A stretch of DNA of 64,000 bases. It comes from an uncultured Candidatus Saccharibacteria bacterium (GTDB lineage Bacteria > Patescibacteriota > Minisyncoccia > Phycocordibacterales > Phycocordibacteraceae). The notes under the pieces were generated by a model. It did no database searches, had not been told where the DNA came from, and saw only the letters and a list, made by a program, of their open reading frames with translations. The position numbers and the translations under genes were made by a program. Within the stretch, counting starts at the first letter, position 1. Each line of letters starts with the position of its first letter. Of the stretch, positions 11,829 to 62,671 are shown piece by piece. The stretch is from the NCBI GenBank assembly GCA_964391975.1, contig CAYMNZ010000001.1:132465-196464 (forward strand), read 5' to 3'.

Positions 11829-12680
11829 ATGAGCTTCTGGCTAATTCTCACGCTCCTTAGCGTCCTTGTGGCTTCAGTTGCCACAATCCTTCAGAAGGTT
11901 CTGATGAGTGGGGAGAGAAGTGATCCGTATTCATATGCGGTCGTTTTCCACTTACTTATGGGGTTTGTGGCGCTTACGTTCGGCTTGGTGAGCGGAACTG
12001 ATTTTTCTCTATTCCAAGGAAATATCTGGATGCTTCTGCTTGCCGCTGCGCTATGGGGAACGTGTCAGGTTTTTCTCTTCAAGGCACTACAGCTGGCGGA
12101 AGCATCAGAGGTAACTATCGTCTCAGGAGTACGAGTAATAGTGACAATCCTTGCTTCCGTTATTTTCCTTAACGAGGTCTTTACCGGATGGAATGTAGTT
12201 GGGACGGTCCTCATTCTTGTTTCAACGGTACTCATAGCCAACAGGAAGAAAGGCTTTACGTTCGACAAGGGGCTCTTCTATACGCTTGCGATGGCGTTCT
12301 TCGGGGGACTCGCCATAGTCGCTGACTCTGCAAACGTGCAGCAGTATGAGGTGCTTGCCTACAGTACGTTTTCTAACGTACTGGCCGGACTGTTCATACT
12401 CGCCGTATATCCGAAGACGTTTACGCAATGGAAAACGTTCGTAAATCCAAGTTTCTTGCTAAAGATGCTGCCTGTTGCAGTCTTTAGCGTCACTCAGGGC
12501 ATGTTGTATCTTTTTGCGTTCACGTACGGAGAACATACCGCTGAGATAGGGACCATACGGCAGGCGTCAGTCATTGTGACGGTCTTGCTTGCTGTTCTCT
12601 TCCTTGGAGAGCGGGATAACCTTTGGAAGAAGTGTATTGCTGCGATTTTAGTGACCGTAGGAGTATTTTTCTTAAGCTAG
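11829..12680 (+). CDS. DMT/EamA family transporter
   Basis: 10 TM helices with two EamA-like repeats. Confidence 0.7.
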   Translation: MSFWLILTLLSVLVASVATILQKVLMSGERSDPYSYAVVFHLLMGFVALTFGLVSGTDFSLFQGNIWMLLLAAALWGTCQVFLFKALQLAEASEVTIVSGVRVIVTILASVIFLNEVFTGWNVVGTVLILVSTVLIANRKKGFTFDKGLFYTLAMAFFGGLAIVADSANVQQYEVLAYSTFSNVLAGLFILAVYPKTFTQWKTFVNPSFLLKMLPVAVFSVTQGMLYLFAFTYGEHTAEIGTIRQASVIVTVLLAVLFLGERDNLWKKCIAAILVTVGVFFLS

Positions 12681-14618: not shown

Positions 14619-15770
14619 ATGATTACGAGGTCGGCCCTCATCGGTCTCATTCTTCTCTTCTCGCTTGTAGGCTATGGGGTAGCCTCCGCAGCTGAGGAGC
14701 CACTCCTTGTCTCCGATACCCCTTCAGACAACGCGTACCTCTTTGGTTCTGACGTTCGTGTCGCAACCAGTGTACCTAAGGATGTTGCTGCGCTCGCGGG
14801 CACCCTCGTCATTGCCGCACCAGTAGGAGGAGATGGTCTTTTTGGAGGAGGGAACATTGATGTTCGTGAAGCAATCGGTGGCGACCTTCGCGCGATAGGA
14901 GGGCGTCTTTTCATAGAGAAAGATGTTGCAGGCGACCTTATCGCAGCAGCAGGTTCAATCACCGTTTCGGGAAAGGCCACGGACGTGCGCCTTGCAGGAG
15001 GTAACGTCACGCTCACCGGTGGAGCAGGGGGTTCGGTCATCATTTACGGAGCCAACGTTACGCTCTCAGGCGAATACGCAGAAGATGTAACGGTCGTTGC
15101 TTCAGACCGCTTTGCACTCGGAGAAGGCGCGATTATTCACGGTGTCCTTAAATACAACGCTCCCCAGGAGGCGGCCATTCCAGCCTCAGCCACCATTGAT
15201 GGGGGCGTCACCTACACTGGTTCCTCGTCCTTCCTGCCGACCACTGAGGAGGCAGAGACCTTCGCACTTGCAGGCCTTGGCGTCTTCTTCTTGGTGCGAC
15301 TGGTGTCTGCTGCCGTTGCTGCCGGACTCATCGCTGGTCTCTTCCCAGCCTTCACACAGCGCATCGTTGACCGCACGCTCACGAAGTCGGCTGGACGCTT
15401 CGCGCTCCTCGCGCTCATTGGCTTTGCCGTCATGATTGCAACTCCCGTGCTGGTATTCGTCCTCATGATTTCGTTTGCAGGAATTGGCATTGGGCTTGTG
15501 GTGGGCGCTGCCTATGTACTCCTCATGCTTCTTGCCTACCTCTACGCGGGCGTTCTTGCCGGAAGCGCGATTATGACGGGCATCTTCAAGCGCGCACGCG
15601 TCACCTGGAAGCATGCAGTTCTTGGCATGCTCGTATTGAGGCTTGTGGGTATCATCCCAGGTATTGGGTTCCTGCTATCGGTCGTTCTTACTGCAGCTGC
15701 GCTCGGCGCCCTTGTCATCACCTGCTACAAGTTTGCATTCGCACGCGGCGTCGACCCGCTTTCTGAATAA
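14619..15770 (+). CDS. Bactofilin-like beta-helical repeat domain fused to a C-terminal polytopic membrane domain
   Basis: Signal/TM; ~170 aa of G-x-V/I-x-G repeats (GGDLRAIGGRLFIEKDVAGDLIAAAGSITVSGKATDVRLAGGNVTLTGG) resembling DUF583 bactofilin; then ~5 TM helices. Confidence 0.5.
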   Translation: MITRSALIGLILLFSLVGYGVASAAEEPLLVSDTPSDNAYLFGSDVRVATSVPKDVAALAGTLVIAAPVGGDGLFGGGNIDVREAIGGDLRAIGGRLFIEKDVAGDLIAAAGSITVSGKATDVRLAGGNVTLTGGAGGSVIIYGANVTLSGEYAEDVTVVASDRFALGEGAIIHGVLKYNAPQEAAIPASATIDGGVTYTGSSSFLPTTEEAETFALAGLGVFFLVRLVSAAVAAGLIAGLFPAFTQRIVDRTLTKSAGRFALLALIGFAVMIATPVLVFVLMISFAGIGIGLVVGAAYVLLMLLAYLYAGVLAGSAIMTGIFKRARVTWKHAVLGMLVLRLVGIIPGIGFLLSVVLTAAALGALVITCYKFAFARGVDPLSE

Positions 15771-23175: not shown

Positions 23176-23367
23176 CTAGGCGGCAAGCTGGTTTGAGCAG
23201 CGCTTCACGGCGTCAATAAAGACGTTTAGGAGCGAGAGGTAGGCCTTCGGGTCCTTCTCGCGCATGATGCGCAGTTCCGACTCAAGCTGGAGCGCCATCT
23301 GCTGGCGTTCTTCTTGGGTCAGGTTCTCACCGTCCCGTATCTTGTCGATAAGTCTCTGGAGTTCCAT
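23176..23367 (-). CDS. Small hypothetical helical protein
   Basis: 63-aa ORF tightly packed between secG and the next ORF; coiled-coil-like. Confidence 0.35.
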   Translation of the reverse strand: MELQRLIDKIRDGENLTQEERQQMALQLESELRIMREKDPKAYLSLLNVFIDAVKRCSNQLAA

Positions 23368-23368
23368 A

Positions 23369-23899
23369 TCAGGTGTTCTTGGCCTGGCGCTCTACCTGCC
23401 CAGCCTTGCGCTGGAACTCGAGGTCATTAGCAAGTCCTCGAAGCGCAAAAATGAGCGCAATGACGCCAGCGACGGCCGCGAGCGAGGTCGGACCGGAGAG
23501 TGCGGACAGTGCCTCCTCCGGCTTCTCGAGCGCCTGCCGCACCCCCACGAGCTCGACGCCTCCTCCGGTAAGGAGAGCGGTGATGATGCCGAGCACGTTC
23601 TGGACGTTCACGTTGCTGTGCTTCTCTTTCTGCGCATCAAGCGTCGTCTCGAGTTCCTTGAGTGCGGCCAGTTTGCGCTCCTGCTCCTCGGGCGTAAGGT
23701 CCGCCGCCTTAATCGCTGCCACCTGTTCGGAGAGTGCGGTAATGGCCGCGAGCATCTGTCGCTCGGTTTCCTTGACGTCCCCGCGCTCGTGCGAGTCCTT
23801 GATTTTGTCGAGCACCTCGTTGAGTCCCATACCCGCATTGTACCCCGGACTTGCGGTGGGTTGTGCACGCGAATATACTGCGAGCAACTCCGGGGGCAC
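23369..23899 (-). CDS. Hypothetical coiled-coil protein with C-terminal hydrophobic segments
   Basis: 176-aa ORF; no recognisable domain; exact start uncertain. Confidence 0.4.
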   Translation of the reverse strand: MPPELLAVYSRAQPTASPGYNAGMGLNEVLDKIKDSHERGDVKETERQMLAAITALSEQVAAIKAADLTPEEQERKLAALKELETTLDAQKEKHSNVNVQNVLGIITALLTGGGVELVGVRQALEKPEEALSALSGPTSLAAVAGVIALIFALRGLANDLEFQRKAGQVERQAKNT

Positions 23900-23946
23900 C
23901 GGACTGGGCGTTCAAAAACACAGGTTATTAGCTAAGCCTTTTCACT

Positions 23947-27982: not shown

Positions 27983-29788
27983 ATGAGCACGCCTACTCGT
28001 ACCTGGTGGTTTCTCCTCGGTGTTGCCGTAGTGCTGGGTGTTTTGGTGTTTTTCGGCGTTAGTTCTATCGTGCCGGGGGAACACTTGGGTGCACAGCTTC
28101 TAAAGACGCTCTTCGCTGGACCAGGCGGCTGGTTGTTCCTGGTTCCGGGCGTTCTGTTAGCGTTTGTGTTCACGCGCATTAGTTTGCACAGAGGAAAAAA
28201 ACTCTTCTCAGAAGAACTCAAACCTATTGAGGCGTTTATTTTTGCTTGTGCAGTGTATCTCTTTCTCGTATACGCGTCGTACCTCATTCTGACGGGGGTA
28301 CTCTACTTTGCAGCAAGTGGCGCTGGTAGTGCTGGTTTTGTATTCGGATTGTTATTTGCATACGCAGTGACTGGGGCATTACCAACGCTATATCTGGGGT
28401 TCCTCGTAACGATGGCACTGATGCTTGTGGCGTTCCGGTCGCCGAGGCAGGAGCCCGGCACCGTGCGATCATCGTTGCTGCGTCGGGGATTCATCATTGC
28501 AGTCTTCCTCGTTTCTCTGTATGCACTGAACGCATTTGTTCCGATTGGTATGGCGCTGAACCAACCCTGGCTCTGCAACCTGGCCTATAGCAGCCGCGCC
28601 AAGGCTGAGTGTTTCCTTGATGCCCAATCACAAAGTACTGCTTCCTCTAAGTACACCGTCATCCAAACTGACTACAAACAAATTAAAAATCTCAAGGATG
28701 TTGGTGGCAAGTTGGCGTACGCTTTTGAGCGACATGACGGCACATCAGGTGTTGTGTACGACGGCCAGCTAGTGAGTGGGGCGTATGAAAAAGTAGGTAT
28801 TCTTCCTATCGCAGAGGTTGGCGGCACACTGGCATACGAAGCGTATAAGGACGGAAAACAGATTATCGTCTGGGACGGTAAGGAGTATGGGAACGAGTAC
28901 GACATAGCACTCAGCCCGACCGATGTCGGCGGAAAGCTCGCATTTCTCGCGCGGAGGGGCACGCGAGAAACCGGACTGCACCAATTCGTCGTCTGGGACG
29001 GCAAAGAGTATGGAACTCAGTTTCAGCAAGCTAACGATATTCGCGATTTTTCTGGCCAACCGCTATTCAAAGCGAAAGGAGCAAACGGCGATTATGTTGT
29101 CGTTGGCGATACAAGCTACGGCCCCTACGGCTATGTCAGTTCTCTGGTAGTACAAGACGGACACTGGGTAGCCAAAGGCGGCAACAATCCCACGTACTAC
29201 ATCGTTGACGGTGTGCTATCTGCGGTTCCCACAAACGATATCGGTCAGGGAGTCTTTGTGAACGATGAGTTCGCGTACGGAGCCGCATCTTTAGAGCACC
29301 CATTAATCATGTACCAGGGCAAAGAGGTTGGCAGAGCCGTTAACTCTGAAGGAGGACCCTTTGAGATTAATGGAAAGGTAGGGTATGTGGCTCTGCTCCC
29401 AGACAATAGAGCGCAGCTTATGGTAGACGGACAGCCGGTTGGTCCGGCCATAGCAGGCAGGGTTCATAACATAGCGGTTTCGGAAGGAGGGAGAGTAGCA
29501 ATCCAAGTCGAAGACGGTTCAAAGTGTAGTGCTGTTGGCGGAGCGGTATACCTTGATGGTGAAAAAGTGTATGAAGGCTGCACCAGCAATCCGTACGGCT
29601 TTTATGGGGAAAAGCTCTTGTTCTGGATAAAAGAAAACGGCATGTCGTTGCTATGGTACGACGGAGAGAAAATCGGTCATGGATTCTACGGCTTCAACTA
29701 CATCGAGCTTATAAACGGCAAGATCGCCATCGCTGCATTCGCATCAACGAACAAGGGCATAGAATATTCGTTGCTGCTTGAGCAATAG
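27983..29788 (+). CDS. Membrane-anchored tandem-repeat protein (~38-aa W-D-G-K-E-Y-G / WG-like repeats)
   Basis: ~6 N-terminal TM helices then ~10 repeats of form VGGKLAY...DGK..VVWDGKEYG..YD. Confidence 0.5.
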   Translation: MSTPTRTWWFLLGVAVVLGVLVFFGVSSIVPGEHLGAQLLKTLFAGPGGWLFLVPGVLLAFVFTRISLHRGKKLFSEELKPIEAFIFACAVYLFLVYASYLILTGVLYFAASGAGSAGFVFGLLFAYAVTGALPTLYLGFLVTMALMLVAFRSPRQEPGTVRSSLLRRGFIIAVFLVSLYALNAFVPIGMALNQPWLCNLAYSSRAKAECFLDAQSQSTASSKYTVIQTDYKQIKNLKDVGGKLAYAFERHDGTSGVVYDGQLVSGAYEKVGILPIAEVGGTLAYEAYKDGKQIIVWDGKEYGNEYDIALSPTDVGGKLAFLARRGTRETGLHQFVVWDGKEYGTQFQQANDIRDFSGQPLFKAKGANGDYVVVGDTSYGPYGYVSSLVVQDGHWVAKGGNNPTYYIVDGVLSAVPTNDIGQGVFVNDEFAYGAASLEHPLIMYQGKEVGRAVNSEGGPFEINGKVGYVALLPDNRAQLMVDGQPVGPAIAGRVHNIAVSEGGRVAIQVEDGSKCSAVGGAVYLDGEKVYEGCTSNPYGFYGEKLLFWIKENGMSLLWYDGEKIGHGFYGFNYIELINGKIAIAAFASTNKGIEYSLLLEQ

Positions 29789-32081: not shown

Positions 32082-34427
32082 ATGCACGATTCAACAACCG
32101 GCATTCGCCGTCTTTCGCTCGACAGTGCTGCGGCATGGGTGCTGACCGCAACTGCAGTCATTGCCATTCTTATTTTCCTTCCGTTCAGTTGGGCGCCATT
32201 CGTCCACACCAAAGTGCTGGTACTCACGCTCGGCGTGTTGCTCACGCTCGTGCTCTTTGTGCTCAGCGCACTCAAGCGCGGAAGTATCACGCTCCCGCAT
32301 CTTCCGCTTGTCGGTTCTCTCTGGTTGGTGCCACTGGCGTACCTTCTCTCCACACTCTTCTCCGGCACTAACCCTGCAGCTGCGTTCTTCGGCACCGGCT
32401 TCTCCCCTGACAGTTTCGGGCTCTTCCTCCTTCTCGCCCTTCTTGCAACACTGGCTTCCTTCGTTCTCTCGACACTTCAGTTCCAGAAGCGCTTTGTGAA
32501 GGGACTGATAGGTGCGTTCCTCCTCCTGCTTGTTTCGGAGATTGTGTTCCTTCTGGGTGGAAAATTCTTCCCAGCGCTGGTTTCTCCGACCGGAAACCTC
32601 ATTGGTTCTTTCGTTGACCTCGGCTTCTTCGTAGGTCTTGGTGTCTCGTTGGCGCTTCTCTGGGCTCGGTTCATGGTCGTGAAGCGCAAGGTAGTCTTAT
32701 ATGTCGCGGTCGTTCTTGGGCTTATCGTTCTTGCTCTCGCTAACTCCATCATTGCCTGGGCCCTCGTATCTCTCGTTGCGTTTGGTCTCTTTGTAGAGGC
32801 GGTGATGTACATGCAGTCGCGCACCGAGAGTCCGGTACGCCGCTCGCTCGCCCTGCCACTACTCACGCTTGCTGCAGGCCTCCTCTTCATGCTCGGAAGC
32901 TCAACAGTAGGAAGCGCTCTCTCGACGCTTGCTGGCACTACCTATATAGATGCTCGTCCTTCATTGCAGTCGACCTTCCAGGTAGGTACGCACACGTACG
33001 CTTCCTCACCACTCTTTGGCACCGGACCAGGTACCTTCGGAAGGGAGTGGCTCGAGCACCGTGACCGCTCAATTAACGACAGCATCTTCTGGAGCGTCGA
33101 CTTCACCTCGGGCATCGGGCACGTGCCAACGTCCTTTGTGACCACTGGCGTCATCGGCGTTCTTGCCTGGATTGCCTTCTTCGCACTCTTCCTGTTCTTC
33201 GGTCTTCGCTCGCTTCTCATGCGCTTACCGACTGAACCATGGCCGCGCTTCATCTCGATTGCTTCCTTCACGGGCGCACTCTATGTGCTTATACTCGCGA
33301 TAGCTGCGCTGCCGGGCCCCGTTACCCTCGGTATAGGATTCTTGCTGCTCGGCCTCTTCATTGCTTCGAGACCTGAAGCAGAGGGACGAATGCTTACGTT
33401 CTCGCAGAATCCGCGCATAGGGTTCGCGCTGGTATTCACGCTTACGTTACTTCTTATTGCATCGCTTGCATACGGTTACGTGGTGGTCAGCCGCTATGTT
33501 GCTGACGTCTCGTTCAATCAAGCAGGAACTGCACTGTCTGCAGGAAACTTCGATGCTGCACAGAGCGCCGTCACTCGCTCGATTGCATTGGCTCCTGAAA
33601 GCCGTACGTACCGTCTTGCAGCGCTTATTGGGTATGCACGCATGAGCCAGGTAGTGAATAACTCTTCGCTCACCCAGACTGAAGCACGTGACCAGTTCCA
33701 AACTGCCGTTGGTAGTGCCATCACGTCTGCACTTCAAGCAACCACACTTGACCAGAACGATTACCAAAACTGGGCAATGCTTGGAAACATCTACGGCAGC
33801 TTGGTGCCGCTTAAGATTGAAGGTGCGTATGAGAACGCGAAGGGCGCGTACGAGAAGGCAGTAGCGCTTGCTCCTACCAACCCGAGCCTACCGTACGTTC
33901 TGGGGCAACTTGAGATTGCGCGCGGTAACACAGAAGCGGCGGAAGCGTATCTTATTGAAGCTATTAACTTGAAGCGCGATTACACGCAGGCAATCCTTCT
34001 CTTCGCGCAAACAGAAGTCTCAAGCGGCAAGACCGCGCAGGCGCTCCAGGCAGCTGAAGCAGCTGCGTACTTCGCTCCAAACGACCCAGGCGTGCTCTTG
34101 CAGGTGGGTCTACTTCGTTCGGCGGCTGGCGAGACGGCCGGCGCTATACAGGCCCTTGCGCGTGCGTCTGAGATTAACCCTCAGTTCGCCAACGCTCGTT
34201 TCTTCCTCGGCGTTATGTATGCCGTCTCAGGAGAGTATGAGAAGGCGGTTGCAGAGATTAGCGCTGTTGCAAGCTTCTCTCCGGAGAACGCTACGGCAGT
34301 GGCGGCAGACCTCGAGACCTTGAAGCAAGGGAAGAATCCGTTCCCAGCATCCCGGCTCGCAGCCTTCGGCATTCCGTACGCTCCACTAGCTGAGCCACGT
34401 CCCGCAGGTGTCGTGCCGGCGCAGTAG
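32082..34427 (+). CDS. O-antigen ligase (Wzy_C)-like polytopic membrane protein with C-terminal TPR repeats
   Basis: ~12 TM helices, large periplasmic loop, ~250-aa TPR region (YEKAVALAP, AIQALARASEINP). Confidence 0.7.
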   Translation: MHDSTTGIRRLSLDSAAAWVLTATAVIAILIFLPFSWAPFVHTKVLVLTLGVLLTLVLFVLSALKRGSITLPHLPLVGSLWLVPLAYLLSTLFSGTNPAAAFFGTGFSPDSFGLFLLLALLATLASFVLSTLQFQKRFVKGLIGAFLLLLVSEIVFLLGGKFFPALVSPTGNLIGSFVDLGFFVGLGVSLALLWARFMVVKRKVVLYVAVVLGLIVLALANSIIAWALVSLVAFGLFVEAVMYMQSRTESPVRRSLALPLLTLAAGLLFMLGSSTVGSALSTLAGTTYIDARPSLQSTFQVGTHTYASSPLFGTGPGTFGREWLEHRDRSINDSIFWSVDFTSGIGHVPTSFVTTGVIGVLAWIAFFALFLFFGLRSLLMRLPTEPWPRFISIASFTGALYVLILAIAALPGPVTLGIGFLLLGLFIASRPEAEGRMLTFSQNPRIGFALVFTLTLLLIASLAYGYVVVSRYVADVSFNQAGTALSAGNFDAAQSAVTRSIALAPESRTYRLAALIGYARMSQVVNNSSLTQTEARDQFQTAVGSAITSALQATTLDQNDYQNWAMLGNIYGSLVPLKIEGAYENAKGAYEKAVALAPTNPSLPYVLGQLEIARGNTEAAEAYLIEAINLKRDYTQAILLFAQTEVSSGKTAQALQAAEAAAYFAPNDPGVLLQVGLLRSAAGETAGAIQALARASEINPQFANARFFLGVMYAVSGEYEKAVAEISAVASFSPENATAVAADLETLKQGKNPFPASRLAAFGIPYAPLAEPRPAGVVPAQ

Positions 34428-34436: not shown

Positions 34437-36116
34437 ATGGTACAGCGCCTTTTCGGAACCCTGACGGCGCCGATACGCGGCCTCCACCAGGCCGCGTATC
34501 TCTTAGCGGGACTCACCTTCGCGTCTCAGCTCTTAGCGCTTCTTCGTGACCGCATCTTTGCGGGCGCCTTTGGCGCAGGGGAGACCTTGGACCTCTATTA
34601 CGCCGCCTTCAAAATTCCGGACCTGGTGTTTGCGCTCGTCGCCTCGCTCGTCTCGGCCTACGTCATCATTCCCCGAATTGCCGGGGACAAGGGAGAGAAT
34701 GCACGGGCGCTTCTGTCGCAGGCCACCTCCTTCCTCATTATTGGCGGGGGAGTCGTATGCACCGCACTGTTCTTTGTGATGCCACAGGCGCTTTTCCTTG
34801 CGTTTCCGAATTTTGCAGATTCTCCACGCGCTGATGAGTTCGTAGCACTTGCGCGGCTGCTCCTCATACAGCCCATTCTGCTTGGAGTCTCAGGAATACT
34901 TGCGAGCGTGACGCAGGTACATCGCCGGTTCCTGTTGTTTGCGCTCTCGCCAATCCTCTACAACATCGGCATCATCGTTGGCGCGCTCTTCCTCTACCCA
35001 ATTATGGGGCTGCCGGGTATCGGTGTAGGCGTCGTCATAGGAAGCATTGCGCATCTTCTTATCAACGTGCCGGTGGTAGTAGGCGCCAAGGTGTTCCCAC
35101 GATTTGTTCTTCCATCGTTCGCCGTGCTTCTCGGTCTTATGAAGGACTCAGTCCCACGCTCACTTGCGCTATCGATGGGGGCTGCAACGACGTTTGTTCT
35201 TGCTGCCCTTGCTGCCTTCACAGGTACTGGTGGTATTTCTATTTTTTCACTTGCAAGCAACCTTGAGGCAGTGCCACTCGCGCTCATTGGTGCGTCCTAC
35301 GCCACCGCGGCATTCCCAGTTCTTGCAAAGGAAATGAATGACGGACATCTGCAAGCCTTTGCTGCGACTCTGGCAGCTGCAGCGCGCCACCTTATTTTCT
35401 GGTCTGCCATTCTTGCGGTACTGACTATTGTGTTGCGCGCCCACATTGTGCGTATCGTGTTGGGTACCGGCGCGTTCAACTGGGACGACACACGTCTTAC
35501 CGCTGCAGTGTTGGGAATACTCGCCCTCGCCCTCGTTGCGCAGTGCATCGTTCTGTTGGCTGCACGTGCGTTTTATGCGGCAGGTCGCTCGTGGATGCCG
35601 TTTCTTATACAAATTATTGGACTCGTCATTTCCATTGGTGCTGCAGCGGGTACGCTCGCGCTCGCACACACCTATCCGTTTGCTCGCGACTTCATAGAGG
35701 CGTTGATGCGCGTTGAAGGAGTGCCGGGCTCTGACATTCTCTTCATTGCGCTCGGTGCTGCCCTTGGGCAGCTCGTGATGGGAGCGATTGCCATTGCCAC
35801 GCTACAGACGGTTGCGCCCGGGGTGGCGGGCTCGCTTGCGCGTCCCATACTTGAGGGAACAGGGGCAGCAATTGTGGGCGGTGCCGTTGCCTACGGCGCT
35901 CTCGTTCTTATGGGCAACATCGCCCCGCTCTCCACACTCCTCGTCGTGCTTGCACAGGGCGTTGCGGCTGGTATGGTGGGAGTCGTAGCTGCGGCGGGCG
36001 TCCTCTTCCTCCTCGAGAACAAGGAATTCAAGGACCTTTGCAGGTCTTTCTCCCGCATCATGCTCCCGAAGACCCCGCTGTACAGCCCGACTCTCAATGA
36101 CCGCACCGATTCGTAA
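34437..36116 (+). CDS. murJ: Lipid II flippase MurJ/MviN
   Basis: 14-TM MOP-family protein; N-terminal ASQLLALLRDRIFAGAFGAG. Confidence 0.8.
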   Translation: MVQRLFGTLTAPIRGLHQAAYLLAGLTFASQLLALLRDRIFAGAFGAGETLDLYYAAFKIPDLVFALVASLVSAYVIIPRIAGDKGENARALLSQATSFLIIGGGVVCTALFFVMPQALFLAFPNFADSPRADEFVALARLLLIQPILLGVSGILASVTQVHRRFLLFALSPILYNIGIIVGALFLYPIMGLPGIGVGVVIGSIAHLLINVPVVVGAKVFPRFVLPSFAVLLGLMKDSVPRSLALSMGAATTFVLAALAAFTGTGGISIFSLASNLEAVPLALIGASYATAAFPVLAKEMNDGHLQAFAATLAAAARHLIFWSAILAVLTIVLRAHIVRIVLGTGAFNWDDTRLTAAVLGILALALVAQCIVLLAARAFYAAGRSWMPFLIQIIGLVISIGAAAGTLALAHTYPFARDFIEALMRVEGVPGSDILFIALGAALGQLVMGAIAIATLQTVAPGVAGSLARPILEGTGAAIVGGAVAYGALVLMGNIAPLSTLLVVLAQGVAAGMVGVVAAAGVLFLLENKEFKDLCRSFSRIMLPKTPLYSPTLNDRTDS

Positions 36117-51018: not shown

Positions 51019-51957
51019 TCAGAGCGGGAAAGGTGATTGGTAAGTGGATTCGTAACGTGCGGTCAGCTCATCAAGCGTGAAGCGGTGGTTTTGCGTACCA
51101 TAGCACTCCACTGCATAGGTGGCTACCGTGCTCGCAAGACGCAACGACTCTTCAAGTGAAATGCCTGAGGAGAGTCCGTGAAGGAGGCCTGCGCGGAATG
51201 CATCTCCTGCGCCGGTGGGGTCAACTACCTCATTTGCAGGAACGGCCGGAACGGTGAGCTCATCGTTTCCTGTACGCACACGAGAACCCTGCTCGCCAAG
51301 CGTGACGATAAGTGTTTGGCACGCATCAATGATGTCTTGCTCGCTCCATCCGGTCTTCTCGAGTACAAGCGCGAGTTCGTAGTCATTAACGATAAGTCCC
51401 AGAGCTCCTGTAATAGCGCTCCTCAAATCTTCTCCGGAGAGCATGGGAATCTGCTGGCCGGGGTCAAAGAGATAGGGAACACCAGCTTCCCGGAAGCGTT
51501 CAGGGAAACGGCGCATGTCTTCGATTCCCGTAGGAGAAACAATGGCGAGCGAGGCTCGTGCGGTTTCAAACGGAAGCGTGTAGCCCTGCTCGTCAGCTCC
51601 GGCAGAGAAGGCAGTAATTTGGTTGTCTGCTTTATCGGTAGTGATGTAACAGGACGCAGTAGGGAGGTCATTGATGATTTCAATGCCGGTAGTTGCAATG
51701 CCATTTTCTTTCAGGTGTTCTTCGTAGTCGGCAAAATCATTACCTGCGGTTGCAAGAATCTCTGGAGAACCGCCGAGAAGTGCGAGGCTGTACCCGATGT
51801 TGCCTGCGCATCCGCCGAACACTATTTTAGGAGTAGAGACCGAGAATGAGACGTTGATGTTATGGAGCCCTTCCGGTAAGAAATGCTCCTTGAAAAGGCC
51901 AGGGAAGACCATGATGCGGTCGTAGGCAAGAGATCCAATGAGAAGGATGCGGTTCAT
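51019..51957 (-). CDS. PfkB-family carbohydrate/nucleoside kinase (adenosine-kinase-like)
   Basis: [15 protein letters not shown] and [14 protein letters not shown] PfkB motifs; translationally coupled to ahcY. Confidence 0.8.
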
Positions 51958-52781
51958 GACGTGAGGTCCTTGGTCATCTCGATACCGAGGAGAAAGGAAG
52001 GTCGCACGCCGTAGCGCATGCGCAACACCTTGAATTTCGACATAATCGCAAGATCCGGGTCTCCGACAAGGTGGTCGGGCATGAGGGTGTAGTTGCTAGC
52101 CTTGTCTCCGGCGAACTTCGCTTTGTCGATAATCACATCATCGCGCTCAAGCTCGTCCATCGCCTGGCCGTTCTCATCAAGCAGAATGAGCTTCACGCGC
52201 AGAAAGGAAGGGAGCTCGCCCCGCTCCTTGTACGCCGCCTGGTTTGCGGGGTCGTTCGACTCGTCCTGGAAGCGGTCCCAGGTCTCCCTGTCCGCGTCCG
52301 AGATTTCATACCCGTTGGTGAGGCCGAGCTTGATGACGGATGGCATGGAGGCACGCAGGTGCATGACATGCGGGACGGTGTCGGGATTGCGCGCGTGGAG
52401 TGCATGCGCGTAGTTTTCGGCAGTCGCGAGCAGGAAGCTGCCTACACCTTTTTTTCGTGTACCGAAGACAAAGCGGTGATAGACGTACCACATACCCTTC
52501 TGTGGGTCCATCGAAAGTTCCGCGACCTTCTCTCCCGTCGCGGTGTCGGTGAAGGTCAGGTAGCCATCCGTGGCACCACGCTCGGGCACGAAATGACTCT
52601 TCCATTCGCACTCTACTTGCCCGGGAGCGAAGCTCGGGAGGTCTATCTTCTCTTTCCACTCGAAGGAGAACTCGGATTGCTCCAACCGTTTCTGTCCTGC
52701 CTCGGAGAGGAGGGCACCAGGGACAGGAGGAGCGGGAGGGCTTTCTGCAGGGCTCATACGCGCATAGTACCAGTTGTGCAA
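51954..52781 (-). CDS. Hypothetical protein (weak GNAT-like motif), first gene of the kinase–ahcY operon
   Basis: 275 aa; RKKGVGSFLL resembles acetyl-CoA-binding motif A; stop overlaps kinase start (ATGA). Confidence 0.45.
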   Translation of the reverse strand: MHNWYYARMSPAESPPAPPVPGALLSEAGQKRLEQSEFSFEWKEKIDLPSFAPGQVECEWKSHFVPERGATDGYLTFTDTATGEKVAELSMDPQKGMWYVYHRFVFGTRKKGVGSFLLATAENYAHALHARNPDTVPHVMHLRASMPSVIKLGLTNGYEISDADRETWDRFQDESNDPANQAAYKERGELPSFLRVKLILLDENGQAMDELERDDVIIDKAKFAGDKASNYTLMPDHLVGDPDLAIMSKFKVLRMRYGVRPSFLLGIEMTKDLTS

Positions 52782-54414: not shown

Positions 54415-54489
54415 TGGTGACCCCACGGGGAATCGAACCCCGATTTACGCCGTGAAAGGGCGCTGTCCTAACCGTTAGACGATAGGGCC
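54415..54489 (-). tRNA. tRNA-Glu (anticodon TTC), CCA encoded
   Basis: Reverse strand: GGCCCTA acceptor (two G-U pairs), anticodon arm GCGCC-CTTTCAC-GGCGT nearly identical to E. coli tRNA-Glu, T-arm CGGGG-TTCGATT-CCCCG. Confidence 0.75.
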
Positions 54490-54547: not shown

Positions 54548-54634
54548 GGAGAGGTGGCTGAGTGGTCGAAGGCGCCGCACTCGAAATGCGGTGTAGGGGA
54601 AACCTTACCGTGGGTTCGAATCCCACCCTCTCCG
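54548..54634 (+). tRNA. tRNA-Ser (anticodon CGA)
   Basis: GGAGAGG acceptor, anticodon arm CCGCA-CTCGAAA-TGCGG, long variable arm, T-arm GTGGG-TTCGAAT-CCCAC; no encoded CCA. Confidence 0.8.
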
Positions 54635-54743
54635 CTCTGGTAAGATAGGGAAATGAGCACCAAAGCTCTTCTACTCCTCTCAATTGTGCTCGGGCTTATC
54701 ATCATCGCGCTCATCGTCGCGCATTTCGTCGTACCTCTCTAGT

Positions 54744-56222
54744 ATGGAAGGCCACCAGGAACTAAAAGCATACATACGGGACCGGCTTGCTGCGGGGGCG
54801 TCGCGTGCCGTTATCGAACAGGAACTCCTCAACGTTGGATGGAAACCGGAGATAGTCCGGGCAGTACTTCGACCCAAACGTAACCTCCGCAAGCCCCTTC
54901 TTATCGCTGCGGGAGTACTGTTCCTTGTCGTCGCTAGTACGGTTTTGGCAGTCTGGGGACCCACTACCCAAGGCGCACGCCTTCCGATTCCTGCGGAGTG
55001 GACGCAACCACCACTCTCGCACGGAGAAGAGCCCGCGCTCGCGAACCCTGAGTTCTTTGCGAAGGTGAAGCAGGACTTCATCGACAAGAAGTCTGACCTC
55101 ATCGAGGCCGACCTCTCAACGATGACACTTAACGTTTATAAAGCAGGGGAGTTGGCGCTCACCGTTCCTATTAAAACTAAGGGACGTGAAGGCTCATGGT
55201 GGGAGACCCCCGCTGGGCTCTATTCAATACAAACAAAAGAGGATTCACACTTCTCAAGTTTTGGCCGTGTCTACCAACCCTACTCCATGGCCTTCCAAGG
55301 AAACTTTTTCATTCATGGCTGGCCGTATTATCCAGGCGGGGAACCGGTAGCAAGTACGTATTCAGGCGGATGCATCAGGCTTGCTGACGAAGACGCGAAA
55401 AAGGTCTTCGATATGGTAGATGTGGGCACCCCGGTGCTCGTCTTTGAGCACGATTTCTCCTCTGACCAATTCTCTTACGCAGACCTCAACAAAGACTCCC
55501 TTTCTGCCGGCAGCTATCTTGCAGCAGATATCCGCAACAACGAAGTCTTTTTCTCAAAGAGTCCAAAGAAACAAGTGCCCATCGCTTCCATCACGAAGCT
55601 CATGACGGCGCTTATTGCGACTGAATATCTCAACCTCGACACCGTTACGACGGTGCCGCGCGAAGCTATCGTCTACACCTCGCTCCCACGTCTGCGAGCC
55701 GGACAAGAAATAAGCATCTACCAGCTTCTCTTCCCGCTCTTGACTGAATCCTCAAACGAAGCCGCTGAGACTATTGCGCGCCACTATGGTCGTGACAGCT
55801 TCGTCGCCCATATGAATGAGAAGGCCAAAGCTATCGGCATGACCGACACCACGTTCGTTGACCCCTCTGGCGCTTCAGCAGAGAACGTCTCGACGGCAGA
55901 AGATCTCTTCATGCTCGCCAAGTACGTCTACAACAACCGTAGTTTCGTTTTCAACATCACCTCCGGAGACCTGAAGGGGAGTGCGTATGGCGCGAGCGTC
56001 TTCACGGACCTCAGGAACCTCAACCACCTCATCACCAGCAAGTACTTCATCGGAGGCAAGGTAGGCCAGACGCTGGCTGCAAAGGAAACTGACCTTATAG
56101 TTCTTGAGATTCCTATTGGTTCAACGACGCGCCCTATTGTTCTTGTGGTACTCGGCTCGGAGGATTCAGAGTCAGATTCTCAAGCGTTGCTTGACCGCGT
56201 GCTCGACCGCTACGCGAGGTAG
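54744..56222 (+). CDS. Fusion protein: L,D-transpeptidase (YkuD) domain + serine D,D-carboxypeptidase (S11/PBP5-like) domain
   Basis: N-terminal TM; YkuD catalytic HGWPYYPGG...SGGCIRL; then SITKLM (SxxK), SSNEAA (SxN), GGKVGQT (KTG-like). Confidence 0.7.
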   Translation: MEGHQELKAYIRDRLAAGASRAVIEQELLNVGWKPEIVRAVLRPKRNLRKPLLIAAGVLFLVVASTVLAVWGPTTQGARLPIPAEWTQPPLSHGEEPALANPEFFAKVKQDFIDKKSDLIEADLSTMTLNVYKAGELALTVPIKTKGREGSWWETPAGLYSIQTKEDSHFSSFGRVYQPYSMAFQGNFFIHGWPYYPGGEPVASTYSGGCIRLADEDAKKVFDMVDVGTPVLVFEHDFSSDQFSYADLNKDSLSAGSYLAADIRNNEVFFSKSPKKQVPIASITKLMTALIATEYLNLDTVTTVPREAIVYTSLPRLRAGQEISIYQLLFPLLTESSNEAAETIARHYGRDSFVAHMNEKAKAIGMTDTTFVDPSGASAENVSTAEDLFMLAKYVYNNRSFVFNITSGDLKGSAYGASVFTDLRNLNHLITSKYFIGGKVGQTLAAKETDLIVLEIPIGSTTRPIVLVVLGSEDSESDSQALLDRVLDRYAR

Positions 56223-56242: not shown

Positions 56243-57106
56243 ATGATCGCAACTGGTGTCCTCCTTGCACTTCTCGCTCTGGTTGGTTGGGGAGTAGGGG
56301 ATTTCCTCATTCAGCGCACTACGAGGCTCGTCGGAAGTGCTAAGGCACTGTTTTTCATAGGACTTGTTGGCTTCCTCGCTCTCTCACCCTTTGTCCTCCC
56401 AGACCTTGGGCAGATTTCCTTTGCTGATATTGCGCTTCTCTCTGTCCTCTCGATTATCGTGATGGCAGGAGCGGCCTTCGACTTCGAGGCACTGCGGCAA
56501 GGAAAGATTGCGGTGGTTGAGCCAGTGGTGGGTCTCGAACTTCCAATGGCGGTAGGCATCAGCGTTCTCTTTATCGGTGAATCCCTTGGGACCACTCAAT
56601 TCCTCTTCATGCTCCTGGTGTTCGCTGGCACCGTGCTCGTGGTGATGCGAAGCTTCCACCACGTGTCACTTCGTCTTCTTGAGAAAGGCGTGTGGCTCGC
56701 CTTCGCTGCGGCAATTGGCACCGCGCTGACTTCAGTGCTTATTGGTGTATCGAGCCAGGCAATCTCACCACTTGTTGCTGTGTGGTTCTCGCATGGCGCG
56801 CTCGCGCTTGTTGCCTTCCTCGTCATCCTTCGTGATGGCACGCTCCACACCACCTGGAAGCAAATCAAGAAGCATCCGGTTACCATCGCTGCACACAGTA
56901 TCTCTGACAACGTCGCGTGGGTGGCGTTTGCAACTGCAGTGACCTTCGTGCCGATTTCGGTGGCTAACACCATCAGCGGAGGATATATCGCGCTTGCCGT
57001 GCTGCTCGGCCTCTTCCTTAATAAGGAGAAGGTGAAGCCCCATCAGCTGCTCGGTATCTTTTTGGTGGCCATAGGCGTCATAGCCCTCTCGTATTTCTAC
57101 GGATGA
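56243..57106 (+). CDS. DMT/EamA family transporter
   Basis: 10-TM two-repeat protein. Confidence 0.7.
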   Translation: MIATGVLLALLALVGWGVGDFLIQRTTRLVGSAKALFFIGLVGFLALSPFVLPDLGQISFADIALLSVLSIIVMAGAAFDFEALRQGKIAVVEPVVGLELPMAVGISVLFIGESLGTTQFLFMLLVFAGTVLVVMRSFHHVSLRLLEKGVWLAFAAAIGTALTSVLIGVSSQAISPLVAVWFSHGALALVAFLVILRDGTLHTTWKQIKKHPVTIAAHSISDNVAWVAFATAVTFVPISVANTISGGYIALAVLLGLFLNKEKVKPHQLLGIFLVAIGVIALSYFYG

Positions 57107-57137: not shown

Positions 57138-58328
57138 ATGAAACCAGCGGATTGCGAGGAGTGTGGCGGAGACGGTATCTACCACCGCCTGACCTATATC
57201 ACGGTGGCGCTTGATGACCTCCTGCGCCCCTTCTTCACCCCTAATGCCTTCCTGAAGCCGATTACTTCCTGGATGTATGCGGTGGAGAAGGATCTCACCC
57301 CAAAACTCCTCAATTGGTTCGTGAAGCGCGGTTGGGCGAAGAAGGTTACTGACTGGGACGATGAGACCCCGCTTTTGGCTCGCATGCTCTGGGAGGAGGG
57401 AAAGGCGCGGGGGATAGAAATCTGGGAGTTCCGTCTCTTCGGGCTGGCACGCAATATTTACGTCGCGAAGCTTACAGACGGCACTGAGATAGCGTATGAA
57501 GGCATCCCGCTGCCGCCGGCCGGACTCACACAAGCATGGTGGCTCGACAACAAAGGCATACTCAAGAAGAAATTTCGTGAGCTCGGTATTCCAGTAGCAA
57601 AAGGTGCAGCTGCATTCACCCGTACGCAAGCAAAGGAGCTCTACAACAAACTTTCAGCTCCCGTCATAGCCAAGCCACACTCAGGCTCAGCCTCTCGCCA
57701 CACTACACTCCACATCACTGACGAACGTGACCTCATTCGCGGGTTTGAGATAGCGAAAGAAGTCGCTCCCTTTGCGGTCATCGAAGAGGAGCTTGTGGGA
57801 GGTGTTTACCGCGCAACCGTGGTCAACGGGAAGCTTGCAGCAACGCTTAGGCGCGACCAGCCGCATGTGATAGGCGACGGGAAGTCGAGTGTCCGGAAGC
57901 TTATGCTCAAGGCCAACGAGCACCCTGCTCGCCAAGGACCCTTCTTCCACCGCATGTACGTCACCACCCCAACGGCATTCCGTGAACTTGAGTGGCAGGG
58001 GCACCAACTCTCTGATATCCCTAAGAAAGGGGAGCGGGTCATCCTCCACCCGAAAATTAACTGGAGCGTGGGCGGCACCACCACCGATGTTACGGACGAA
58101 GTGCATCCGGACAACCAGGAACTCTTTGAGCGCATTGCAAAGGTGCTCGCCGCTCCGGTGGTCGGCATTGATTTCATTATTGGAGATATGAACCAGTCCT
58201 GGAAGGAACAGGACCGCTGCGGCGTCATTGAGTGCAACTCAATGCCATTCTTTGATAACCATCACCTGCCGTTTGAGGGGAAGCCTCGAAACGTAGCGGG
58301 GGATATTTGGGAGATGGTACTTAAGTAG
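57138..58328 (+). CDS. Stand-alone ATP-grasp enzyme, cyanophycin-synthetase-like
   Basis: ATP-grasp core (PVIAKPHSGSASRHT, GGTTTDVTDEVHPDN..VGIDFIIGD resembling CphA N-terminal ATP-grasp); N-terminal CEECGG. Confidence 0.6.
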   Translation: MKPADCEECGGDGIYHRLTYITVALDDLLRPFFTPNAFLKPITSWMYAVEKDLTPKLLNWFVKRGWAKKVTDWDDETPLLARMLWEEGKARGIEIWEFRLFGLARNIYVAKLTDGTEIAYEGIPLPPAGLTQAWWLDNKGILKKKFRELGIPVAKGAAAFTRTQAKELYNKLSAPVIAKPHSGSASRHTTLHITDERDLIRGFEIAKEVAPFAVIEEELVGGVYRATVVNGKLAATLRRDQPHVIGDGKSSVRKLMLKANEHPARQGPFFHRMYVTTPTAFRELEWQGHQLSDIPKKGERVILHPKINWSVGGTTTDVTDEVHPDNQELFERIAKVLAAPVVGIDFIIGDMNQSWKEQDRCGVIECNSMPFFDNHHLPFEGKPRNVAGDIWEMVLK

Positions 58329-59785: not shown

Positions 59786-61003
59786 TTATTTATTCTTGTT
59801 CCTTCGAAGGAAGGAAGGGATGACGCCGAAACCGTTGTCGTCTTCCTCGACAATCGGGGTGACAGGCTTCTCCTCACGGCGCTGGGGCTGTGCAGTAACC
59901 ACAGGCTCCTCCTTCTTGCGAGGGGCGTCCTCTTCAGGCTCCTTGCGCTCAAGGACGTCGTTGTAAATCTTGCCGCGGGTGTCGGTCTGCTCCTTAGGCG
60001 TAAGGGAGAAGAGAGAGCGCTCGCCCATAGTCGTCTCGCCAGTGCCCTCTGGGAAGCCCGTAGCGATGACGATGATGCGAATCTGGCCCTTCTTGAGCTT
60101 CTCGTCGCGCATGATACCGAAGATGACCTTGGCAGTCTTGTCGACGGACTCGGAGACGACCTTGGCTGCCTCCTGCACTTCGAGGATGCCGAGGTCTTCG
60201 TTGCCTGCGACCACGAAGAGCACGCCCTTGGCTCCTGCGATAGAGACATCGAGGAGTGGGGAATTGACGGCCTGCGTTGCTGCATCCTTGGCGCGGTTGT
60301 CGCCCTCGGAAATACCAATACCCATGAGTGCAGGACCTGCACCTTCCATGATGGCCTTAATGTCGTTGAAGTCGGTGTTGATTTCACCGGGAGTGACGAT
60401 GATGTCAGAGACACCTTCCACTGCCTGGCGAAGAATCTCGTCACAGAGTGCAAACGCGCTCTTGGCTGAGGTGTTTGGCTCAACAATGGCGAGGAGCTTG
60501 TCGTTGGGAATGATGATGAACGCATCTACCTCCTTCTTGAGTTCAGCAAGACCGCGGTCAGCAATATCCTTGCGCTGTGCGCCCTCAAACGAGAACGGAC
60601 GAGTGACTACGGCGACCGTAAGTGCTCCCATCTCCTTGGCAATCTTTGCAATTACTGCAGAAGCGCCGGTGCCAGTACCACCGCCCATACCACAGGTGAT
60701 GAACACCATGTCGGAACCCTGGAGTCCTTCCTGAATTTCCTGGCGGGTTTCTTCTGCTGCGCGACGTCCGAGGTCGGGGTTCATGCCGGCACCAAGACCG
60801 CGGGTGAGGTTCTTGCCGATGTGAATCTTGCGCTTGGCGAGGGAGCGGTGAAGGTCCTGCGCATCGGTGTTGATGGCGATGAACTCAACTCCCTTCACTT
60901 TGGAGTTGATCATGTGGTTCACGGCGTTTAAGCCCGAACCGCCCACACCGACGACCCGTATCCGGGCAAACGTCTCGATTTCAGGCACGATGCGCTTAGA
61001 CAT
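59786..61003 (-). CDS. ftsZ: Cell division protein FtsZ
   Basis: GVGGSGLNAV, tubulin signature GGGTGTGA, NTDAQ. Confidence 0.95.
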   Translation of the reverse strand: MSKRIVPEIETFARIRVVGVGGSGLNAVNHMINSKVKGVEFIAINTDAQDLHRSLAKRKIHIGKNLTRGLGAGMNPDLGRRAAEETRQEIQEGLQGSDMVFITCGMGGGTGTGASAVIAKIAKEMGALTVAVVTRPFSFEGAQRKDIADRGLAELKKEVDAFIIIPNDKLLAIVEPNTSAKSAFALCDEILRQAVEGVSDIIVTPGEINTDFNDIKAIMEGAGPALMGIGISEGDNRAKDAATQAVNSPLLDVSIAGAKGVLFVVAGNEDLGILEVQEAAKVVSESVDKTAKVIFGIMRDEKLKKGQIRIIVIATGFPEGTGETTMGERSLFSLTPKEQTDTRGKIYNDVLERKEPEEDAPRKKEEPVVTAQPQRREEKPVTPIVEEDDNGFGVIPSFLRRNKNK

Positions 61004-61113: not shown

Positions 61114-62289
61114 TTAAGGGAGAAACTGACGGAAAAAGCGTGTGAGGGAGGTCTTCATGCCAGCAAGTGAGGCTTTGCCGCTACTTGGGCCACCACTCAT
61201 CTCTCCAGTGAGCCCCCAGAGCGCGAGTCCGTAGGCAACTGCCCAGGTTGCGTCCTTTATTTTGGCATCTGGAGCAACGCGAATATCTGCAATGCGCGAA
61301 GGAAGTGAAAGCGAACCTTTTGCGATGTCGCTTATCGAACCTTGGCCGGCGCCACCACCTGAAAGAATGATGCCAGCAGGAAGCGCACCGCGCTTGCCGA
61401 TAGCTTTGAGGTGCTTGTCGATTAAATCAAACATGCCTTTGAAGCGCGCGCCCATAATGTCGTCAACGCGCTTGCGCGGATACATGGCGCCTGAGAGTCG
61501 CCCAAGCTTAATGCGCTCTGCATCCTCCAAGGAGACCTTGAATCCAAGTGCAAGATCATCCGTGATGCTGCTTGAGCCTGAAGGGAAGACCTTGAGCGAA
61601 ATAGGAACACCTTCGTCGTAGACCACGATAGAGACAGTCTCGGCACCAATGTTAGCCAGCACACAACCTTTCATCTTCTGGTCTTTGGCGAGCGTCACGT
61701 AGGAGCCAGCGAGTGGAGAAGCCATACAGTCGATGACTTCCACATCCGCATTCTCAACTGCGTTGGTGAGCGCATCAGCGTGGCTCTCAAGGCAGGTAAT
61801 AAAAAGGAAGTCGCCCTCAAGTCGTGTGCCCTTCATACCAAGCGGCTCGCCCAAACTCTTCACCCCATCAACGCTCCAGCCAAGCGGAATCTCGTGGAGG
61901 ATGCGGCGGTTCAAAAATGCAGGAGAGGCGGCCTGACGTGCAGACTCCTGTGCCTTCTCAATATCGAGCTCAGTAATCTCTGCGTCTGCGCGCGAAATAA
62001 TGGCAGTACCTGTGCCGCGCGTCTCATCAAGTGAGATACCGCCGATGGCAAGAAAGCCGCTCTTAATAGGGAGGCGAGCTACCTGCTCTGCCTGACGCTT
62101 AGCGCGCCGTATGCTCTCAGCCACGTCGTCTACATCAACGACGTACCCATGCCGCATGCCTGCGGTCTCTGCTATGCCGGTGCCAATGATGCGGAGCCCG
62201 GGGCCTTCGCTATCGCGTACCTCCTCGACGACTACCACCTTTACTTGGTGACTTCCGATGTCGATTCCCGTTGCGATTCTTCGTGCCAT
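61114..62289 (-). CDS. ftsA: Cell division protein FtsA
   Basis: Actin-fold IATGIDIGSHQVKVVVV N-terminus, GGGAGQG; start placed at MARRIATG. Confidence 0.85.
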   Translation of the reverse strand: MARRIATGIDIGSHQVKVVVVEEVRDSEGPGLRIIGTGIAETAGMRHGYVVDVDDVAESIRRAKRQAEQVARLPIKSGFLAIGGISLDETRGTGTAIISRADAEITELDIEKAQESARQAASPAFLNRRILHEIPLGWSVDGVKSLGEPLGMKGTRLEGDFLFITCLESHADALTNAVENADVEVIDCMASPLAGSYVTLAKDQKMKGCVLANIGAETVSIVVYDEGVPISLKVFPSGSSSITDDLALGFKVSLEDAERIKLGRLSGAMYPRKRVDDIMGARFKGMFDLIDKHLKAIGKRGALPAGIILSGGGAGQGSISDIAKGSLSLPSRIADIRVAPDAKIKDATWAVAYGLALWGLTGEMSGGPSSGKASLAGMKTSLTRFFRQFLP

Positions 62290-62671
62290 TGTGTAGAGAT
62301 ACGAACCGGGCAAGCAGTGCCCGCTCTCGTTTCTCCATTGTAGGGCCATGAGGCATTCCCTTCAAATGCAGGAGTGCGTGGATAAACAAGAATGCGACGA
62401 ATTGAGGGTACGAAAGGTCGTAGTCAGGAGCTTGGGACTTGGCTACTTGAAGGCAGATGATGACCTCACCGCTCTTGGTATCAGAGGCATACGAGAGCAC
62501 GTTCGGAACGTAGCTCTTCTTTCTGAGGCTTTGGTTAAGACGCTTAGCCTCGGTTGGTCCAACAAACGCAAGAGACACTTCCCATGAAGGAAGTAGTGCT
62601 TTCGCTATGCGTGTAAAAGGAACACCCGGCACAGGGCGCCGGGTGAGGTTTCGAATACTGACTGCAGGCAT
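62210..62671 (-). CDS. ybeY: rRNA maturation endoribonuclease YbeY
   Basis: HALLHLKGMPHG (H-x3-H-x5-H zinc motif); 3' end overlaps ftsA start by ~80 nt. Confidence 0.65.
   Translation of the reverse strand: MPAVSIRNLTRRPVPGVPFTRIAKALLPSWEVSLAFVGPTEAKRLNQSLRKKSYVPNVLSYASDTKSGEVIICLQVAKSQAPDYDLSYPQFVAFLFIHALLHLKGMPHGPTMEKRERALLARFVSLHNGTKNRNGNRHRKSPSKGGSRRGGTR

Follow-up and report, generated by a model that had tools for sequence, protein, structure and literature searches.

The locus described here raises the question of whether one gene encodes two peptidoglycan enzymes in a single chain and, if so, what the pair might do together. The coding sequence lies on the + strand at 54744..56222 of the window, the whole 64-kb stretch of DNA that was analyzed, and specifies 492 amino acids plus a stop codon. 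The longest frame at the locus in the open reading frame list runs from a TTG codon at 54684 to 56222 on the + strand. The TTG was rejected as the start codon in favor of the ATG at 54744 because a 95%-identical protein (P0001) is also 492 amino acids long, because homologue alignments give 99-100% coverage, and because a tRNA-Ser gene ends just upstream, at 54635. An earlier note on this DNA had proposed one polypeptide with an L,D-transpeptidase-type and an S11-type domain. Pfam matches to PF03734 (YkuD) and PF00768 (Peptidase_S11) bear this out, and the five motifs that the note quoted (HGWPYYPGG, YSGGCIRL, SITKLM, SSNEAA, and GGKVGQT) were all found in their places.

The chain was modeled with AF2 from an 89-sequence alignment, giving a mean pLDDT of 85 and a pTM of 0.72. 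It begins with a three-helix domain to which no family was assigned (aa 3-42; 54750..54869, +), with predicted helices at residues 3-16, 21-30, and 35-42 (pLDDT 92-96). The sole Pfam match to this domain, RecX_HTH2, was non-significant (E 0.16). The domain is present in homologues of ∼500 amino acids and missing from shorter ones. It is followed by a single transmembrane anchor (aa 49-71; 54888..54956, +), recognized as the hydrophobic stretch PLLIAAGVLFLVVASTVLAVW and as a predicted helix over the same residues. The basic stretch RPKRNLRK directly precedes this helix, which suggests a topology in which the N-terminal domain would face the cytoplasm and both catalytic domains would lie outside the membrane. 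A disordered spacer (aa 72-100, pLDDT <50) and a conserved helix (aa 101-114) then lead into the YkuD domain (54957..55094, +); across the 89 sequences, residues Gly-94, Leu-99, Ser-100, Pro-102, Phe-104, Phe-105, Lys-109, and Phe-112 of this region are nearly invariant. The model shows a β-rich YkuD domain (aa 118-234) and an α/β penicillin-binding fold (aa 250-491), joined by a 16-residue linker (aa 234-249; 55443..55490, +). Linker residues 239-244 are modeled with low confidence (pLDDT <50). Asp-241 and Tyr-245 of the linker are invariant in the same alignment, and Phe-238 and Phe-243 are nearly so. A Foldseek search of solved structures returned none that spans the YkuD and S11 halves together.

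The YkuD catalytic domain (aa 118-233; 55095..55442, +) matches positions 2-146 of the 146-position PF03734 profile, scoring 64.5 bits where the cutoff is 23.4 (E 2e-17). It has the required His, here His-191 (55314-55316) in HGWPYYPGG, followed by the Cys-containing motif [S/T]-x-G-C-h-[R/N], here YSGGCIRL with Cys-210 (55371-55373) and Arg-212 (55377-55379; all on the + strand). His-191 and Cys-210 align on the catalytic His and Cys (SHGCIN) of Enterococcus faecium Ldtfm (PDB 1zat and 3zg4). His-191, Gly-192, Cys-210, and Arg-212 are all invariant in 121 close family sequences. Judged by its sequence, the YkuD active site is complete and strongly conserved, and is of a kind in which L,D-transpeptidases and L,D-carboxypeptidases are not separable by sequence.

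The second catalytic domain is a serine DD-peptidase (penicillin-binding) domain of family S11 (aa 250-491; 55491..56216, +). The PF00768 match covers residues 250-449 and scores 114 bits, well above its cutoff of 27.6 (E 1e-32), and the fold reaches residue 491; Foldseek confirmed the S11 fold, with an E value of 4e-18 to 6muq. The three motifs are S282-I-T-K285 (55587-55598) in ASITKLM, S336-S-N338 (55749-55757) in ESSNEAA, and K439-V440-G441 (56058-56066) in GGKVGQT, all on the + strand. When aligned with the PBP7-like DD-endopeptidase 6muq, they fall on SITK, S-E-N, and KTG, respectively. Among the 121 close members Lys-285, Ser-336, and Ser-337 are invariant, Asn-338 is present in 120, Ser-282 in 119, and Lys-439 in 117, and Gly-441 is kept.

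The catalytic residue sets of both domains are therefore complete, as judged by Pfam, a motif check, and alignment to Ldtfm and 6muq. Loss of the catalytic Ser/Lys of the C-terminal domain, which the earlier note had named as the finding that would count against it, is not what is seen here or across the 120 nearest relatives. Relative to the closest genome match (L001, a Paceibacterota metagenome-assembled genome with 95% identity), dN/dS is 0.03 for the whole gene. It is lowest in the YkuD part (0.006) and low also in the S11 part (0.02), with 0.13 in the first 100 residues. The conserved catalytic residues and the low values for the two domains argue that both are functional and under constraint.

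The same note had called the C-terminal domain a PBP5-type D,D-carboxypeptidase, and the PBP5-type label did not hold. No PBP5_C domain was matched by Pfam at E ≤ 1, and the S11 half scores only ∼24 bits against Escherichia coli PBP5 versus 94 bits against 6muq, 91 bits against 6azi, and 82 bits against Bacillus subtilis DacB (3mfd). Foldseek also places 6muq, 6azi, and 3mfd first. The best-scoring NCBIfam family is PbpG (PRK11669), but the score of 119 bits is well below the equivalog cutoff of 294, so that the protein is not a PbpG orthologue. Nor does the protein reach the equivalog cutoff of DacA, DacC, or DacD; the DacA and DacD models score 23 bits (cutoff 694) and 39 bits (cutoff 610). 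The chain has nothing beyond the final helix (aa 475-491) of its PBP fold and lacks a PBP5-style C-terminal amphipathic anchor, its anchor being N-terminal. The domain is accordingly classed, from its sequence matches, as a short form nearest to PBP7/PbpG and DacB, a class in which carboxypeptidase, endopeptidase, and transpeptidase are not separable by sequence. Because its closest relatives are the PBP7/PbpG endopeptidases together with DacB, the term D,D-carboxypeptidase says more than the evidence does.

At the third S11 motif the canonical KTG is not matched; the Lys and Gly are kept and the Thr is replaced by Val-440. This substitution, also remarked on in the earlier note, is real and family-wide. 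Among the 121 close members the motif is KNG in 81 and KVG in 36, which makes 117 with K-[N/V]-G, and it is never KTG. Species-level fusions at 79 loci have KVG (36), KNG (23), or KIG (9), which together account for 68 of the 79, and KTG once. In some of the same loci a stand-alone S11 paralogue is encoded a few genes away, and these paralogues have KTG in 14 of 14 cases, which ties the change to the fused state. A Thr downstream of the motif (Thr-443 in K-V-G-Q-T) is kept in >90% of sequences. The Thr hydroxyl of KTG normally helps to hold the carboxylate of the substrate or of a β-lactam. With Val, Asn, or Ile in its place, the grip on the terminal carboxylate of a substrate or β-lactam is probably altered, with no direction of change implied, and since the Thr is missing ordinary handling of D-Ala-D-Ala is not guaranteed.

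The combination of YkuD and S11 domains is far from unique to this locus. A protein search, from which the best 120 matches among 5.8 billion proteins were taken, found PF03734 together with PF00768 in all 120; those with a named source are all from Patescibacteria. Relatives with the same architecture are 49-95% identical over 99% of the length of the protein. The present protein has every feature by which the family was defined, namely a transmembrane anchor, a YkuD domain, a conserved short linker, a short-form S11 domain, and usually K-[V/N/I]-G. A scan of GTDB, with one genome per species, gave 252 matching stretches. The best 80 of the 252 are all from Patescibacteria, the named sources belonging to the Paceibacteria/Parcubacteria (Paceibacterota and Nomura-, Taylor-, Colwell-, Lipton-, Wolfe-, Kaiser-, and Vogelbacteria). 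As the closest of them is the Paceibacterota genome L001, the window is assigned to an organism of that kind. An exhaustive search of representatives yielded 534 clusters (50% identity) at E ≤ 1e-30, and a separate search begun from a divergent KTG-type member changed neither the architecture nor the phylum. Some relatives carry an added PGA_cap domain at either end of an intact YkuD-S11 pair. The recurrence of the pair in all of these proteins, stretches, and clusters, in the divergent branch, and in the PGA_cap variants marks the fusion as a stable evolutionary unit. We regard it as an old and stable module that is, going by the available names, lineage-restricted. Hundreds of independent assemblies contain the uninterrupted architecture, and some linker residues are invariant; an assembly or frameshift artefact joining two genes was therefore rejected.

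YkuD and S11 are textbook families, and proteins with this fusion have been public for years (for example, a 2016-style Kaiserbacteria entry) under the generic names “L,D-transpeptidase family protein” and “D-alanyl-D-alanine carboxypeptidase.” Searches of a limited literature collection turned up no account of a YkuD-S11 fusion and only passing mention of L,D-transpeptidases in Patescibacteria. The fusion has apparently never been studied.

In the wider family, 135 cluster representatives of full length were surveyed for site loss. Both sites are kept in 78 of these. About 43 keep the YkuD His and Cys and have lost Ser-282, Lys-285, Ser-336, or Lys-439, and 14 have Gly or Ser at the position of Cys-210 with the S11 site kept. 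At the species level, the fused S11 site is degenerate in 11 of 79 loci. Pairwise alignment illustrates both kinds of loss: P0139 has AISRLM, GSR, and GMFG in place of the S11 motifs, and P0170 has SSGGIRL at the YkuD Cys motif. Pfam still detects both folds in proteins with a dead site. Since members with one dead site exist, the family as a whole does not depend on a strict coupling of the two steps inside each molecule, and the retention of both folds suggests that the two-domain body is useful with a single working site. The variants are scattered and do not form one clade, which does not support their being a single old subfamily. Compensation of a dead fused S11 domain by a nearby stand-alone KTG paralogue was also rejected; the stand-alone genes adjoin fusions with an intact S11 site. 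Site loss concerns the wider family and not the protein encoded at 54744..56222.

What might the two domains do in one chain? The reading that we favor, at a probability of about one-half, is of a membrane-anchored extracytoplasmic enzyme whose two predicted active sites would work on peptidoglycan stem peptides in a tetrapeptide relay leading to 3-3 cross-links. Near the membrane, the S11 serine peptidase would cut the D-Ala4-D-Ala5 bond of a stem, or the bond from D-Ala4 to residue 3 in a 4-3 cross-link, and in either case would leave a tetrapeptide. The YkuD cysteine enzyme would take this tetrapeptide as acyl donor, releasing D-Ala4, and would join the tripeptide to another stem through the side-chain amine of its residue 3, making the 3-3 cross-link. 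The fusion would thereby hold the maker and the user of tetrapeptides at one place. Substrate channeling, a wall rich in 3-3 cross-links, and β-lactam tolerance, all proposed in the earlier note, are conjectural. Gene fusion is “Rosetta stone” evidence for a functional link between the two activities, and a relay of substrate within the fusion is a plausible, and the best-supported, reading by analogy with E. coli. There, members of the same enzyme families divide the work in the same way, the class C S11 protein PBP5 (DacA) making tetrapeptides and the YkuD enzyme YcbB (LdtD) using them; YcbB can use tetrapeptides as donors but cannot use pentapeptides, and PBP5 is both necessary and sufficient as supplier (PMC5089857). 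The E. coli enzymes are two separate proteins, whereas the fusion is one N-terminally anchored chain.

The main rival to this relay, though an unlikely one, is that the two sites trim stems in two steps, the S11 domain removing D-Ala5 and the YkuD domain, as an L,D-carboxypeptidase, removing D-Ala4, so that pentapeptides would become tripeptides and cross-linking would be limited. Enzymes with the YkuD fold that act solely as L,D-carboxypeptidases are known, namely Csd6 (PMC4599014) and ElsL (PMC8649774), and bona fide L,D-transpeptidases such as YcbB also have L,D-carboxypeptidase activity in vitro (PMC5089857). The NCBIfam ElsL model does match the protein weakly (E 0.003), but its 17.5 bits are far under the cutoff of 270, and the solved structures that the YkuD domain matches best are those of true transpeptidases (Ldtfm, 1zat/3zg4, and 6fj1) and of one ErfK-family protein. 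That last protein, 5bmq, is the top match and is named an “ErfK/YbiS/YcfS/YnhG family protein.” With the weak NCBIfam matches to LdtE-type enzymes, it is what could be cited for a YkuD domain whose role would be to anchor a protein to peptidoglycan and not to cross-link stems, in the manner of E. coli ErfK/YbiS/YcfS with Braun lipoprotein. No conserved neighboring gene at 80 loci is a candidate substrate for such anchoring. Moreover, we know of no Lpp-like substrate in Patescibacteria, a phylum thought to lack an outer membrane, and we consider this explanation the most improbable of all.

The remaining doubts concern the S11 domain. With KVG in place of KTG it might mainly bind stems and target the YkuD domain to new wall, or it might have a changed specificity. 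Nearly all fusions, but 0 of 14 stand-alone paralogues, have another residue in place of the KTG Thr, and the ∼43 representatives and 11 of 79 species-level fusions that have lost Ser-282, Lys-285, or Lys-439 keep His-191, Cys-210, and the S11 fold, which shows that the fold can be useful without catalysis. Against this stand the retention of Ser-282, Asn-338, and Lys-439 (119, 120, and 117 of 121) and of Lys-285, Ser-336, and Gly-441 in close relatives, and a dN/dS of 0.02, a constraint typical of an active site rather than of a binding scaffold; a chiefly binding or re-specified S11 domain thus seems decidedly unlikely for this protein. It is very unlikely that the S11 domain is instead a D,D-transpeptidase, which would make the protein a double cross-linker producing 4-3 and 3-3 links. 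Streptomyces K15 DD-transpeptidase and Staphylococcus aureus PBP4 are S11 members and appear among both the sequence and the fold matches, and multifunctional enzymes would presumably be economical in the small genomes of Patescibacteria. However, K15 and PBP4 score only 38 and 41 bits, against 82-94 bits for the PBP7-like and DacB hydrolases, and most members of the S11 family are hydrolases. Somewhere between trimming and a binding role in likelihood, and thus quite doubtful, is a further reading in which the fusion would be a lineage-specific machine of Paceibacteria dedicated to cross-linking and remodeling. The change from KTG to K-V/N/I-G would have adapted its S11 domain to function solely in tandem with the L,D-transpeptidase to which it is joined, and the domains would form an obligate structural pair, one binding a stem while the other acts, as the repeated independent loss of single sites might indicate.

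Comparison with characterized or solved proteins places the fusion among known enzymes. PBP5 differs from the S11 half in its C-terminal β-sandwich, in being anchored to the membrane at its C terminus, and in its canonical KTG, where the fusion has the short form and KVG. PBP7/PbpG (6muq, 6azi; PRK11669) is the closest solved and curated relative of the S11 half; at ∼31% identity and 91-94 bits, it shares the short form with one domain, and the motifs align. Unlike the fusion, it consists of that domain alone, is soluble in the periplasm, and has KTG. B. subtilis DacB (PBP5*, 3mfd), an S11 DD-carboxypeptidase, gives the best superposition (rmsd 2.9 Å) at 82 bits; it has KTG and lacks a YkuD domain. 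On the YkuD side, E. faecium Ldtfm shares the domain and the aligned catalytic His and Cys, although the similarity amounts to only ∼27-31 bits and its N-terminal domain is different. Ldtfm relies on a separate DD-carboxypeptidase, the metallo-enzyme DdcY. By its depositors' name alone, 4xxt would have a DD-carboxypeptidase-family module and an ErfK-type domain on one chain, and its YkuD part matches the present protein at E 3e-4; its partner module, however, is named as a Zn-dependent amidase/peptidase and not as a serine S11 PBP.

The fusion reveals no new chemistry or system; it is an uncharacterized variant of known enzymes and a useful lead. It provides independent genomic evidence tying a DD-peptidase to an enzyme of the L,D-transpeptidase fold, a partnership that genetics and biochemistry had established only in E. 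coli and enterococci, where the proteins are separate. To our knowledge there is almost no experimental work on the cell wall of Patescibacteria, a phylum that makes up a large share of bacterial diversity, and a widespread bifunctional wall enzyme is a concrete, expressible target for learning their type of cross-link. The altered KTG and the variants with one dead site amount to a natural experiment on how PBP-fold domains bind stem peptides. If the tandem-only machine were real, most of the reliance of these ultra-small bacteria would be on 3-3 cross-links from a single bifunctional enzyme, and they would have an unusual profile of β-lactam sensitivity.

The surroundings of the gene point to a peptidoglycan-producing organism, since MltG/YceG, MurJ, FtsZ, and FtsA are encoded in the window; no class B PBP was detected among the 38 open reading frames scanned there. 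The search for other Ldt genes that the earlier note had suggested for the genome was run within the 64-kb window, where tblastn found no second YkuD or S11 sequence. Upstream of the fusion gene lie genes for a DoxX protein, an α/β hydrolase, and a DUF1801 protein and a divergent tRNA-Glu/tRNA-Ser pair; downstream are genes for an EamA transporter and a stand-alone ATP-grasp protein, an unknown ORF, and a thioredoxin-reductase-like gene. No conserved operon partner emerged across 80 loci, the commonest neighbor cluster occurring in 15 of them. Two candidate partners were discarded: a 29-residue hydrophobic ORF immediately upstream (54653-54742) is present only in the closest relative, and the downstream ATP-grasp gene is cyanophycin-synthetase-like and is not conserved beside the fusion. 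The order fusion, scpA, scpB, stand-alone S11, mraY is limited to 14 loci, and the stand-alone S11 gene beside scpA-scpB in these loci resembles the dacB-scpAB neighborhood of B. subtilis.

Loss of one catalytic site is a recurrent feature among relatives of the fusion protein. The S11 site is dead in 43 of the 135 full-length representatives of the wider fusion family, and the YkuD cysteine is replaced by glycine or serine in 14 of the 135. In many relatives, one domain no longer has its catalytic residues while the other retains them (database proteins P0139, P0170, and others; matching loci L030, L031, L032, L034, L037, L042, L043, L044, L049, L054, and L060). These single-site losses are scattered over the family and do not form one clade. 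Other relatives, encoded outside the window, have an extra PGA_cap/CapA domain (PF09587; P0181, P0193, P0253, P0302, P0321, and P0330), which is C-terminal in the YkuD-S11 forms of ∼780 amino acids and N-terminal in P0253. The YkuD-S11 pair is intact in the proteins with this addition.

Residues 3-42 of the fusion protein (window positions 54750-54869, + strand) are confidently predicted to form a three-helix domain, which would lie in the cytoplasm. No family match was found for this segment, the only hit being RecX_HTH2 at an E value of 0.16. The domain is common to the fusion homologues of ∼500 amino acids and is absent from shorter homologues.

In a subgroup of loci (L035, L036, L039, L041, L046, L050-L052, L063, L065, L067, L069, L070, and L075) the fusion gene is followed by scpA, scpB, a stand-alone S11 PBP gene, and mraY. 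The stand-alone PBP has the canonical KTG motif and shows ∼33% identity to the fused S11 domain. An S11 gene adjoining scpAB is reminiscent of the neighborhood of dacB in B. subtilis.

Immediately upstream of the fusion gene, a 29-codon ORF (54653-54742, + strand) encodes a very hydrophobic peptide, MSTKALLLLSIVLGLIIIALIVAHFVVPL, and stops 1 nt before the fusion-gene ATG. This ORF may be due to chance, because its conservation is limited to L001, the locus with 95% identity, and does not extend to the 38 other loci checked. A divergent tRNA pair, tRNA-Glu(UUC) (54415-54489, − strand) and tRNA-Ser(CGA) (54548-54635, + strand), also lies directly upstream.

Two genes downstream of the fusion gene is a gene for a 396-amino acid ATP-grasp protein (57138-58328, + strand), retained only in the closest relatives. 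The protein has no Pfam match at E 1e-3. Its match is to cyanophycin synthetase, in the ATP-grasp (G) domain (E = 5e-39 to 7lgn; 196 bits to TIGR02068, cutoff 850), and it lacks the remainder of that enzyme. It is a stand-alone, amino acid ligase-like protein.

Elsewhere in the window, four sizeable ORFs had no Pfam match at E ≤ 1e-5: 601 (27983-29785, + strand), 383 (14619-15767, + strand), 274 (51954-52778, − strand), and 223 amino acids (23264-23932, + strand). Three EamA-family transporters are encoded at 6839-7732, 11829-12677, and 56243-57103. Cell-envelope and division genes comprise MltG/YceG (345-1316), MurJ (34437-36113), preceded by a 781-amino acid TPR protein (32082-34424), FtsZ (59789-61003, − strand), and FtsA (61117-62349, − strand).
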